A DNA stretch of 7,745 nt. Source: Octopus sinensis (taxonomy: Eukaryota). The DNA lies in NCBI RefSeq assembly GCF_006345805.1, contig NW_021828895.1:1-7745 (forward strand), read 5' to 3'. Of this stretch, positions 2,874 to 7,745 are shown one piece after another. The position numbers and the translations under genes were made by a program. How positions within the stretch are numbered: the first letter of the stretch is position 1; each line of letters begins with the position of its first letter. Under the pieces are notes generated by a model. It was not told the origin of the DNA, made no database searches, and worked only from the letters and a program-made list of their open reading frames with translations.

Positions 2874-3094
2874 ATATGTTTGTGTGTCTCTGTTTGTCAT
2901 CCCCAACATCGCTTGAAAACCGATGCTGGTGTGTTTACGTCCCCGTAACTTGGTGGTTCGGCAAAAGAGATCGATAGAATAAGTACTAGGCTTACAAAGA
3001 ATAAGTCCTGGGATCGATGTGCTCGAGTAAAGGTGGTGCTCCAGCATGGCCACAGTCAAATGACTGAAACAAGTAAAAGAGTAAAAAGAGTATA
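2639..3094 (+). mobile_element. tRNA-derived CORE-like SINE, family A, copy 1 (resembles octopus OR-type SINEs)
   Basis: A box tggctgtatgg (2649-2659), B-box-like gggctcagtccc (2691-2702), CORE-like gcaccttg(a)g(a)aagtgtctt, internal (CT)n(TA)n(TG)n, tail (gtaaaaga)n. Several homologous copies in the window. Confidence 0.9.
2799..2890. repeat. (CT)n(TA)n(TG)n compound microsatellite inside SINE A copy 1
   Basis: Directly visible dinucleotide runs. Confidence 0.95.
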
Positions 3095-3256
3095 AGCGAA
3101 GGAGTGGCTGTGTGGTAAGTAGCTTGCTTACGAACCGTATGGTTCCGGGTTCAGTCTCACTGTGTAGCACCTTGGGCAAGTGTCTTCTACTATAGCCTCG
3201 GGCCGACCAAAGCCTTGTGAGTGAATTTGGTAGACGAAAACTAAAAAAACCCGTCG

Positions 3257-3408: not shown

Positions 3409-3594
3409 ATGTGTTTATATGTTTGTGTGCCTGTGCTTGTCCCCGTTACTTAGCGGTTGGGCAAAAGACAACCGATGGAATAAATACTAGTCTTACAAGA
3501 ATACGTCCTAGGGTCGACTTACTCGACTAAAGGCGGTGCACCAGCATGGCCACAGTCAAATGACTGAAACAAGTAAAAGAGCAAAAAGAGTATA
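3095..3594 (+). mobile_element. SINE family A, copy 2, directly head-to-tail after copy 1
   Basis: ggagtggctgtgtggtaagtagcttgc head, gggttcagtctc B box, ccttgggcaagtgtctt CORE-like block, same 3' end tgactgaaacaagtaaaagag. Confidence 0.9.
3257..3420. repeat. (TA)n microsatellite inside SINE A copy 2
   Basis: Long tatata runs with few interruptions. Confidence 0.95.
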
Positions 3595-3785: not shown

Positions 3786-4202
3786 ATCATTATCATCATC
3801 ATCATCATTATCGTTTAACGTCCGTTTTCCGCGCTAGCACGGGTTGGACGGTTCGACCGGGGTCTGGGAAGCCAGAGGCTGCACCAGGCTCCAGTCTTAT
3901 CTGGCAGAGTTTTCTACAGCTGGATGCCCTCCTAACGCCAACCACTCCGCGAGTGTAGTGGGTGCTTTTTACGTGCCACCTGCACAGGTGCCAGGGGGGG
4001 GTCCGGCATCGGCCACGATCGGTTGGAGCTTTTAACGTGTCAGCGGCACGGAAGCCAGCCAAGGCGGCGCTAGCATCGGCCACGTTCGGATGGTGCTTTT
4101 TTATGTGCCACTGGCACTGGAGCCAGTCGAGGCAGCGCTGGCATCTGCCACATTCGAAGTTAAGTTGCATCGGCCGGGAACTTAACTTCGAACGTGGCCG
4201 AT
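3786..4202 (-). mobile_element. 3' portion of a non-autonomous retroelement with RTE-like end and (GAT)n tail; three internal ~65-bp repeats
   Basis: Minus strand ends ...ccaacccgtgctagcgcggaaaacggacgttaaacgataatgatgatgat and contains ggttggcgttaggagggcatccagctgtagaaa, a motif I associate with RTE-related elements (from memory). GC-rich against AT-rich flanks. Repeats ggtgcttttt..gtgcca..gcatcggccacg start at 3961, 4025 and 4092. Confidence 0.7.
4143..4202. repeat. Inverted repeat, 24-bp arms (2 mismatches), 12-nt loop
   Basis: atctgccacattcgaagttaagtt (4143-4166) / aacttaacttcgaacgtggccgat (4179-4202). Confidence 0.9.
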
Positions 4203-4940: not shown

Positions 4941-5323
4941 TACTCTTTTACTCTTTTACTTGTTTCAGTCATTTGACTGCGGCCATGCTGGAGCACCGCC
5001 TTTAATCGAGCAACTCGACCCCGGGACTTATTCTTTGTAAGCCCAATACTTATTATACCGCTAAGGTACGGGGACATAACACACCAGCATCGGTTGTCAA
5101 GCAATGTAGGGGGACAACACACTCACACACACACCACACGCATATATATATACATATATACGACGGGCTTCTTTCAGTTTCCGTCTACCAAATCCACTCA
5201 CAAGGCTTTGGTCGGCCCGAGGCTATAGTAGAAGACACTTGCCCAAGGTGCCACGCAGTGGGACTGAACCCAGAACCATGTGGCTGGTAAACAAGCTACT
5301 TACCACACAGCCACTCCTGCGCC
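4941..5323 (-). mobile_element. SINE family A, copy 3 (inverted orientation)
   Basis: Reverse complement of ggcgcaggagtggctgtgtggtaagtagc...tgactgaaacaagtaaaagagtaaaagagta, with a short internal (TA)/(TG) tract at ~5117-5160. Confidence 0.92.
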
Positions 5324-5489
5324 TATAGTAGACTTTTATATATGAAACTGAATCTAAACGTAAATAAATAACGACTACAAAATGTCAAACTTAAAATAAT
5401 ACACCTTGAAAGGCCTACAGATGTGTAGATCATTAGAAATAAGATTTGCAGGCGTATTTCATATATATAACAACGCTTTCTTATATATA

Positions 5490-5695
5490 ACCTCATCCCT
5501 ACGGCTTGATGTCCGGTGTTAGTTTGATAAAGTCCTTGTAACGTAGCGCTTAGGTTGACTAAGTCCTTGTAATGTAGCGAATCGGCAAATTAAGCCGATA
5601 GACTTTATAAAGGCGTAAGAACTGGTGTCGATTTGTTCGAGTGAAACCTTCGAGGCGGTGCCCGAGTATGGCAGTTGTGAAACGATCTGAACCAT
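5490..5695 (+). mobile_element. Highly degenerate 3' half of a family-A-related SINE
   Basis: gtccttgtaatgtagcgaatcggcaaattaagccgataga ~ gtccccgtaacttagcggttcggcaaaagagaccgataga; gtcgatttgttcga..aggcggtgcccgagtatggc ~ gtcgacttactcgactaaaggcggtgctccagcatggc. Confidence 0.6.
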
Positions 5696-5843
5696 GCTAC
5701 AAGACCCGTGTTTCTCTTCTGCCAAAACGTCATTGAACAAAAGCAAATTTATCCCTTCCAAACAAAAAGTGTAATTTTATGTAATGCAGAAGAAATTTGT
5801 AACTTTTCGGACATCGTCTATTCACCTAGGAATCACATAAAAT

Positions 5844-7180
5844 ACTTGTTTCTTTATTGCCCACAAGGGGCTAAACATAGAGGGGACAAACAAGGACAGA
5901 CATAGGTATTAAGTCGATTACATCGACCCCAGTGCGTAACTGGTACTTAATTTATCGACCCCGAAAGGATGAAAGGCAAAGTCGACCTCGACGGAATTTG
6001 AACTCAGAACGCAACGACAGACGCAATACCTATTTCTTTATTACCCACAAGGGGCTAAACACAGAGGGGACAAACAAGGACAGACATAGGTATTAAGTCG
6101 ATTACATCGACCCCAGTGCGTAACTGGTACTTAATTTATCGACTCGAAAGGATGAAAGGCAAAGTCGACCTCGACGGAATTTGAACTCAGAACGCAACGA
6201 CAGACGCAATACCTATTTCTTTATTACCCACAAGAGGCTAAACACAGAGGGGACAAACAAGGACAGACATAGGTATTAAGTCGATTACATCGACCCCAGT
6301 GCGTAACTGGTACTTAATTTATCGACCCCGAAAGGATGAAAGGCAAAGTCGACCTCGGCGGAATTTGAACTCAGAACGCAATGACAGACGCAATACCTAT
6401 TTCTTTATTACCCACAAGGGGCTAAACACAGAGGGGACAAACAAGGACAGACATAGGTATTAAGTCGATTACATCGACCCCAGTGCGTAACTGGTACTTA
6501 ATTTATCGACCCCGAAAGGATGAAAGGCAAAGTCGACCTCGACGGAATTTGAACTCAGAACGCAACGACAGACGCAATACCTATTTCTTTATTACCCACA
6601 AGGGGCTAAACACAGAGGGGACAAACAAGGACAGACAAACGGATTAAGTCGATTACATCGACCCCAGTGCGTAACTGGTACTTAATTTATCGACCCCGAA
6701 AGGATGAAAGGCAAAGTCGACCTCGCGGAATTTGAACTCAGAACGCAATGACAGACGCAATACCTATTTCTTTATTACCCACAAGGGGCTAAACACAGAT
6801 GGGACAAACAGGACAACATAGGTATTAAGTCTATTACATCGACCCCAGTGCGTAACTTGGTACTTATTTATCGACCCCGAAAGGATGAAAGGCAAAGTCG
6901 ACCTCGACGGAATTTGAACTCAGAACGCAACGACAGACGCAATACCTATTTCTTTATTACCCACAAGGGGCTAAACACAGAGGGGACAAACAAGGACAGA
7001 CAAACGGATTAAGTCGATTACATCGACCCCAGTGCGTAACTGGTACTTAATTTATCGACCCCGAAAGGATGAAAGGCAAAGTCGACCTCGGCGGAATTTG
7101 AACTCAGAACGCAATGACAGACGCAATACCGCTAAGCATTTCGCCCGACGTGCTAACCACTCTGCCAGCTCGCTGCCTTT
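5844..7180 (-). mobile_element. Multimeric tRNA-derived SINE, family C: one full head plus 7 tandem ~184-bp bodies, 13-bp TSD
   Basis: Head on minus strand ggcagcgagcTGGCAGAGTGGttagc (A box 7157-7167). B box gagttcaaattcc in every unit. TSD aatcacataaaat at 5831-5843 and 7181-7193. Central gactttgcctttcatcctttcggggtcgataaattaagtacc resembles a conserved SINE central domain (Meta-domain-like, from memory). Confidence 0.9.
5849..7130. repeat. Tandem array, 7 units of 182-184 bp
   Basis: tttctttatt starts at 5849, 6033, 6216, 6400, 6584, 6767 and 6949; units nearly identical. Confidence 0.98.
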
Positions 7181-7588
7181 AATCACATAAAATGCCGTCA
7201 ATCGAACAAGTCAAATGCTTTTACATTTGGGAACCGAGAAAATAAGATCTAGATTCATGACGTCATACGTACGCTGACTTGTTTTATACTAGTCCAAAGT
7301 ACATGACACTCAGACCTACGTTAGACATATTTTAATTATCCGTCTATGAAATGTCGCCTCATAAGTCTTAGTCGACTGGACGTAATTGTAAGAATCATTT
7401 GCACAGAAATCAACAAGAAAGCAAATATTTGAGGAGTGATCATCAGAACTGCGTACTAATATCTGTGCCTTTATTCTGCTTATGAACCAATGAATAAAAG
7501 AAGAAAGGAAATTTTAGGCCGTAAAGAAGAAAAAAAAATTGGGACGTTTTCGGCATTGCCCCTTCACCAAAAAACGACATGAAATATT

Positions 7589-7745
7589 CTCTTTTACTCT
7601 TTTATTACTCTTTTTACTCTTTTACTTGGTTCAGTCATTTGACTGTTGCCATGCTGGAGCACCGTCTTTAGACGAGCAACTCATCCCCAGGACTTATTCT
7701 TTGTAAGCCTAGTACTTATTCTATCAGTCTCTTTTGCCGAACCGC
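7589..7745 (-). mobile_element. SINE family A, copy 4, 3' end (runs off window)
   Basis: ctcttttactcttttatt...tcagtcatttgactg..gccatgctggagcaccg..ttattctttgtaagcctagtacttattctatc, matching the reverse complement of copy 1's 3' part. Confidence 0.9.

Follow-up and report, generated by a model that had tools for sequence, protein, structure and literature searches.

The reading we favor, with a probability of roughly 0.58, is that a tRNA-type SINE of the octopus targets its own family: new copies enter older ones at the GGTATT just downstream of the head, giving rise to the joins and, likely, to single-headed arrays grown at the front. The window, the whole stretch of DNA analyzed, is one entire 7,745-base unplaced contig of a 2.72-Gb genome. 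It carries a seven-unit array of this family, one of tens of thousands built by the same mobile element. The initial annotation offered three origins for the array, namely serial template jumping over 5'-cleaved RNAs, copying of a multimeric or circular RNA and tandem expansion after insertion. It missed a fourth route, for which there is direct evidence: new copies insert into older family members at the join base.

The array lies on the minus strand, where a 47-nt head is followed by seven units of 182–187 nt (Table 1). All six internal joins are exact, with AAAGAAATA running directly into GGTATT. Only the 5'-most unit has the head, which contains the A-box-like TGGCAGAGTGG, and the B-box-like GAGTTCAAATTCC is kept in 7/7 units; both motifs were read from the sequence against the usual A- and B-box consensus. 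TRF describes the array as period 184 with 7.0 copies and 96% matches, and also as period 367 with 3.5 copies. The single head, the seven exactly joined units and the one bracketing target site duplication (TSD) reported initially all hold in the contig, and the exact 13-bp direct repeat AATCACATAAAAT can be extended to 16 bp with 2 mismatches. Position 7194 is A in the contigs of runs X5 and X8, so the 5' TSD copy there begins with GGTATT, the same hexamer as at the joins, and the target at this locus likely began with it as well. The transcribed strand of the 1,337-nt element has no run of four T. In Y units, three linked differences from type X produce AATACCTAT, which is precisely the join ATAGGTATT in reverse complement, and a predicted fold pairs the motif with the join; selection for this pairing or a templated quasi-palindrome change may lie behind it.

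Table 1. Features of the SINE array in the window. Each unit reads on the minus strand from its higher coordinate and opens with GGTATTGCG.
Feature	Position	Strand	Length (nt)	Remarks
TSD, 5' copy	7181..7196	-	16	13 bp exact (7181-7193); 16 bp with 2 mismatches
Single tRNA-like head	7131..7177	-	47	GAGTGG variant (uncommon); AAA (7178-7180) precedes
A-box-like motif TGGCAGAGTGG	7157..7167	-		read from sequence against the usual consensus
B-box-like motif of unit 1	7093..7104	-		repeated in every unit; read in the same way
Unit 1	6947..7130	-	184	type X (A16, C40, ATCCGTTTG); tail AAAGAAATA
Unit 2	6765..6946	-	182	type Y (G16, T40, ATACCTATG); 14-20 letter differences from the other units, clustered, which may be read error
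Unit 3	6582..6764	-	183	type X; a single gap apart from unit 1
Unit 4	6398..6581	-	184	type Y
Unit 5	6214..6397	-	184	hybrid: 5' part X, 3' part Y
Unit 6	6031..6213	-	183	type Y
Unit 7, terminal	5844..6030	-	187	5' part Y-type; 3' end A153, C172, C183 like young-subfamily monomers
TSD, 3' copy	5831..5846	-	16	13 bp exact (5831-5843)
AATACCTAT sites	5902-5910, 6086-6094, 6269-6277, 6453-6461, 6818-6826	-		

Elsewhere in the window there is another dispersed element with a central TA microsatellite, which we take to be CORE-like, at 2635-2778 and 3091-3234 on the plus strand and 5184-5327 on the minus strand. More copies of it lie at 2955-3092 and 3497-3594 (plus) and at 4946-5060 and 7606-7743 (minus). 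One long-tail SINE copy elsewhere (L078) is inserted at a GGTAAG site matching the head of this element. Short tandem repeats of 68 bp and 31 bp occupy 4006-4156 and 5519-5579, and ATC, TAA and CAC microsatellites fill about 1.5 kb of the region 10-1834, where 958-1515 shows a 69-bp higher-order period.

The family monomer is 231 nt long and its exact tail 19-mer occurs 121,635 times in the genome (control 0), well inside the size and copy number used for SINEs in SINEBase (<1 kb, at least 100 copies; PMC3531059). The accessible text of that source defines a tRNA-derived SINE by a head at least 60% identical to a tRNA. ARAGORN and Rfam return no tRNA match in the window, and the A- and B-box-like motifs were recognized by eye. 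A 231-nt monomer is too short for an endonuclease or reverse transcriptase of its own; since it codes for neither, it is not an autonomous self- or site-targeting non-LTR element, although it shares with such elements a fixed 3' junction together with a TSD (all 17 nested copies with a long tail join at GGT, 14 of them into an older body). At loci L002-L251, a hairpin with a CTTGT loop directly precedes a GAAA end in the long tail and in two short sister tails; it is likely a recognition site for a partner LINE. The GAGTGG head variant (window 7153-7166) is also present at five other loci among those retrieved (L021, L010, L017, L019 and L024), where it sits on units of subfamilies other than that of the window, indicating that heads and bodies are shuffled. 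Long satellites made from the 5' part of the SINE occur in G000 on C11606, C10257, C28 (at 20.09 Mb), C9071 and C10381, with periods of about 131, 118, 40, 32 and 26 nt, and look like true SINE-derived satellites.

The genome holds 36,010 copies of an exact 19-mer spanning the join and 0 of the control. This bears out the prediction that the same join recurs at unrelated loci; the possibility that arrays exist only here, named at the outset as a ground for refutation, is not the case, as the join is spread genome-wide. The density is about one exact join per 75 kb, and about 27–30% of tails are joined. In a tail-selected sample, 24/71 tails continue into family sequence, 19 of them at the exact join position of the window. 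Multimers with one head and one TSD, as in the window, are many among the sampled arrays; an outer TSD is detected in 10/17 and 9/21 multimers, compared with TSDs above the null threshold (mean 16 bp) in 29/45 monomers. A second class of join, from tail to head position 15, has 2,742 occurrences. The letter at tail column 172 predicts which site is used, with T172 in 43/46 joins at position 48 and C172 in 12/13 joins at position 15. The 29 monomer TSDs begin with GGTA in 9 cases, TATA in 8 and GATA in 3, and the family's own head directly precedes GGTATT. Loci biased toward the window's type were excluded from the resident-letter, TSD, head-age and matched-column tests. A sample of G7 junctions was set aside; it consisted mostly of sporadic T-to-G changes, with a young-subfamily unit downstream in only 5/64 elements.

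The nested loci are ordinary target-primed insertions into an older family member at the exact join base. They were found with a pattern of head, GGTATT, 2–22 nt and a second head, which gives 139 matches. Among the 30 of these that were fetched, 10 are head-repeat clusters (65-nt) and in 3 a long tail is missing where the spacing predicts one. GGT comes directly after the tail in all of the other 17, and in 14 of these an older SINE body continues behind it. The inserted body has 94.5% identity to the column majority and the resident 79.7%; the new head has 95% and the old head 76%. Non-majority letters are common to the inner duplicates in 16/42 cases against 6.0 in permutations (p=1e-4). 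A control pattern for the two-head search gives 130 matches, and among the 100 listed most come from tandem contigs. At head position 15, only 1/15 two-head matches examined is a nested insertion and most are 5' head duplications. A two-head match alone is thus no proof, and the case for nesting rests on the inner duplication and the age contrast rather than on the number of matches.

Three further observations concern the ends of insertions. The 5' end of new insertions often has a partial head duplication inside the outer TSD (L412-L424, L433-L434), which suggests template jumping at the RNA 5' end. Tandem repeats of 65–66 nt, made of the head plus 16 nt, are found at L258-L267 (G000 C1 194.2-195.6 Mb; also C7 and C18); they stand before a full copy, and some have their own outer TSD beginning with GGTATT. 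At L013 and L199, a full-length copy is placed directly after the tail of an older copy, into the TSD of that older copy, so the TSD of an old copy seems to be a reusable target.

Units along the arrays differ in type and in age. Column 172 is C in 1/77 first units and in 27/44 last units (p=2e-14), and many arrays end in the short-tailed sister family B or in other subfamilies. Because arrays mix subfamilies, expansion of one monomer cannot be their source. On 66 matched non-CpG columns, last units are more divergent than first units both in 41 B-ended arrays (5.4% versus 3.5%, p=0.003) and in 53 long-tail arrays (3.9% versus 2.7%, p=0.015), and the two divergences are uncorrelated (rho 0.10 and -0.04, respectively). 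Between neighboring units, the downstream one is richer in rare letters in 50 pairs and poorer in 21. A singleton-count version of the polarity test gives only p=0.058, and whole-unit counts of rare non-CpG letters, made with unequal thresholds, show no difference between B and L units (3.5% versus 3.3%, p=0.28). In the young subfamily of the window, first units ending in AAAC are monomers in 17/17 cases; first units ending in AAAT are followed by another unit in 11/13, with varied partners. Among the 1,176 pairs formed by 49 array-terminal B units, none shares three or more rare letters, so there is no signature of a few masters. Array B units are nearer each other than chance (20.9/28 versus 11.6, p=0.012), an effect driven by a few near-consensus hubs. 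Heads of B-ended arrays diverge by 9.0%, those of long monomers by 9.2% and those of B monomers by 17.4%, eight heads with position-15 joins being left out of this test; the array heads are young along their whole length. In the first 18 columns of unit 1, letters of the resident are not shared above chance for B or C partners, and a Mantel test of rare letters of B against those of the upstream L unit gives r=0.006. The TSDs of L and B monomers show no difference in age, and TSD age therefore cannot separate growth in place from recopying.

In the mechanism we propose, targets often begin with GGTA, GATA or TATA, as seen among the TSDs, and the family offers such a target as GGTATT after its own head. 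A young full-length copy then lands at this GGTATT and duplicates letters of the resident on its inner side, as shown at 14 fetched loci. Most events would have to end with one head, by either of two routes. In route A, the cDNA would pair in place with the matching sequence of the resident, as has been proposed for the precise 5' junctions of R1 and R2. Consistent with this route are the uncorrelated ages, the absence of sibling pairs from the 49 array B units, the high divergence of residents that keep two heads, and the AAAC and AAAT first units of the young subfamily with their varied partners. In route B, Pol III would start at the inner head and read through, there being no T4 run, and the multimer would be recopied. 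The young heads on B-ended arrays and the composites with their own outer TSD (L258, L264) fit route B; as the heads of B-ended arrays are as young as those of monomers, recopied multimers fit them better than growth in place. RNA read through past a join would pair with residents over a long stretch, which could raise the rate of hits. Repeated rounds would place young units before old ones, and at the window locus an X-Y pair may have been duplicated or converted locally to give seven units. Against the proposal, two-headed nested loci are rare beside the 36,010 joins. Target preference alone gives, by hand estimate, about 140 hits at the join site (85,625 tails x 6/35 x 3/305), a value with a wide error as it rests on 3/305 and 6/35. 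The join-making step is seen at a small number of loci, and more than 99% of the joins need an amplifying step, which we infer. That self-insertion is a main mode of spread, with read-through RNA of arrays pairing with residents, priming inside them and adding a unit and a head ahead of the old body, is a possibility that we hold tentatively.

Conversion at the DNA level from multimeric donors is a real rival. Here the join would have arisen a few times, ectopic gene conversion or unequal crossing-over would have spread the join tracts, and growth would proceed without reverse transcriptase. Such exchange would suit the donor-type letters found on both sides of the join in some arrays (L396, L404), the L-type letters at columns 14 and 16 in 7/28 array B units versus 0 and 3/39 monomers, and the supply of potential donors, which amounts to about 30% of tails; sSat and bivalve arrays are attributed to unequal recombination in the accessible text of PMC10702118 and PMC11481361. 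We nevertheless judge conversion to be on the unlikely side, as it leaves unexplained why nested copies have inner TSDs exactly at the join, why the tail letter goes with the join site, and why units run consistently from young (5') to old (3'). Still less likely is descent from one or a few multimeric masters, a linear form of the multimeric-RNA model, in which Pol III would read through the master, copying would take in the whole transcript or start at an internal tail, and unit counts would vary with the priming site and local slippage. Last units older than first units with uncorrelated ages, the lack of sibling terminal B units and the varied partners of one small young lineage all speak against masters, whereas the lack of a T4 run in the 1,337-nt element, the outer TSDs of multimers, the young heads, the head-repeat composites and the position-specific letters that distinguish first from last units would agree with them. 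Copying of a multimeric RNA, as in the initial annotation, may account for some copies, given the missing T4 run and the composites.

The serial jumping first proposed is not supported. In its wider form, the reverse transcriptase jumps serially over cleaved headless RNAs or a 184-nt circle, or switches between homologous RNAs within one insertion. Base-exact joins are what such jumping would produce; the 5' head duplications suggest that the enzyme is able to jump on reaching the 5' end of an RNA, template switching could have produced the chimeric first units, and AATACCTAT of the Y units pairs with the join in the predicted fold. However, of the 65 TSD-bounded 5' ends, not one begins at the join, and a single event predicts units of equal age while last units are older. 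Rfam finds no ribozyme, with nothing better than E 4.3 and two chance matches outside the array core; inspection by eye reveals no hammerhead or HDV topology, and predicted folds are no stabler than shuffles (z -0.03 and -0.57). A ribozyme or structured RNA was rejected on these results, and the family does not match retrozyme-type elements, which have a ribozyme in each unit. We regard jumping as improbable.

Pure local expansion, in which an inserted monomer is duplicated via GTATT microhomology between tail and head, is scarcely credible as the origin of the join. It would account for T40, which units 2, 4, 6 and 7 share and which occurs in 0/65 related units elsewhere, for an array period of two units, and for L014, where rare letters are common to all four units. 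The systematic difference between first and last units, the many arrays that end in another subfamily and the sharing of a rare letter by only 15/127 within-array pairs largely refute it, and it stands only as a secondary step. Tandem expansion, the third of the original models, fails for the join, since first units differ from last ones at linked positions such as column 172; it probably explains part of the window's unit count. T40 is private to the four window units and only one gap separates units 1 and 3; local duplication has thus likely added units, and after insertion an initially short array likely reached seven in this way or by conversion. The history of the locus was followed over the head and right flank in contigs from four of the 24 runs listed, X2, X4, X5 and X8. 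X2 and X5 both have the head joined to the right flank, with 4 differences in 440 bases and 13 in 339, respectively. The comparison of filled and empty alleles suggested initially yielded filled sites, with no empty allele seen in these four sets of contigs, of which X4 gives little coverage of the flank. The assembly contains the right flank only once, which excludes an allelic copy in it. No pair of monomer and multimer alleles is seen at any one site, and for head plus join no other scored locus exceeds a 96% match. The X5 contig has seven unaligned letters that end at the position of the GAGTGG head variant of the window, which would fit an in-place head swap.

Tandem SINEs as such are not new, since sSat, clam arrays and full-length multimers have been published. 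Squamate sSat (Vassetzky et al. 2023, PMC10702118) is described in the accessible text as satellite-like, homogenizing and likely subtelomeric, with mainly unequal recombination invoked; that text mentions insertion into the same locus briefly, and the terms TSD and target site are absent from it. As in sSat, the octopus units are shorter than the SINE and one terminal unit is longer and extends to the end of the SINE, with five middle units here where at least four are required, and alternating two-unit patterns occur in sSat too. Unlike sSat, the octopus arrays are short, dispersed, TSD-bounded, mosaic and age-polarized; with dispersed joins, mostly in mosaic arrays of 2–4 units, they do not form a homogenized subtelomeric array. 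The TSD1-(SINE)n-TSD1 arrays of the blood clam Scapharca broughtonii (Martelossi et al. 2024, PMC11481361), where about 3% of copies are tandem-like according to the accessible text, are also from a mollusc and resemble the window array in having a full head on one unit only, repeats of units truncated at the head, and a single TSD around the whole. Internal clam units are truncated at head and tail, whereas the octopus family keeps a full tail throughout, has joins on about 27–30% of its tails, and shows nested intermediates. Head-to-tail multimers of Dip, B2 and Ves in rodents and bats consist of full-length units joined at their tails (accessible text of PMC8466645), and Alu is a dimeric SINE (PMC10702118, in part). 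In contrast to these, the target of the window family is an internal site behind the head, giving headless units. A fixed Alu-like dimer does not describe it, as the number of units runs from 1 to at least 10 and last units come in three or more kinds.

For R1 and R2, precise 5' junctions were proposed to come from annealing of cDNA to matching target sequence (Stage and Eickbush 2009, accessible text of PMC2718515). The window SINE resembles them in its fixed first-strand site; R1 and R2 are autonomous and target rDNA, whereas the SINE is non-coding, targets its own family and also inserts widely elsewhere. Zepp of Chlorella is said to be a LINE whose nested arrays arise from insertions into its own earlier copies. 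It is reportedly autonomous, telomeric, low in copy number and variably truncated, unlike the window SINE. Zepp is named in the accessible part of PMC10088271. Octopus tRNA-derived SINEs OK, OR1 and OR2 (Ohshima and Okada 1994) are cited in PMC4758252, PMC4824008 and PMC3531059, and a tRNA-Deu class of SINEs is treated in PMC8967140, as far as the accessible texts go. According to these partial sources, tRNA-derived SINEs dominate octopus repeats; OK, OR1 and OR2 are set beside the window family here by class rather than by consensus. In the openly readable main texts searched, we found neither this join nor octopus SINE concatemers described, nor any SINE said to form headless arrays via an internal site within its family. 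The supplements of PMC10702118 and PMC11481361 may show similar joins.

For the route from an interspersed SINE to a tandem array, prior work, in its accessible text, invokes unequal recombination or leaves the matter undecided. With its 36,010 base-exact joins, its nested intermediates bearing inner TSDs, two join sites that follow two tail alleles and an age gradient, this family makes the route testable with the genomes of relatives. If arrays grow in place, insertion markers would be unstable, as head and units can postdate the insertion, and repeat-age profiles would be distorted. If the self-insertion reading is true, loci by the tens of thousands would record subfamily activity in order, as archives that grow at the 5' end; old, dead copies of sister families would gain new Pol III promoters, and homologous repair templated by RNA and carried out by a LINE enzyme would be observable across the genome.
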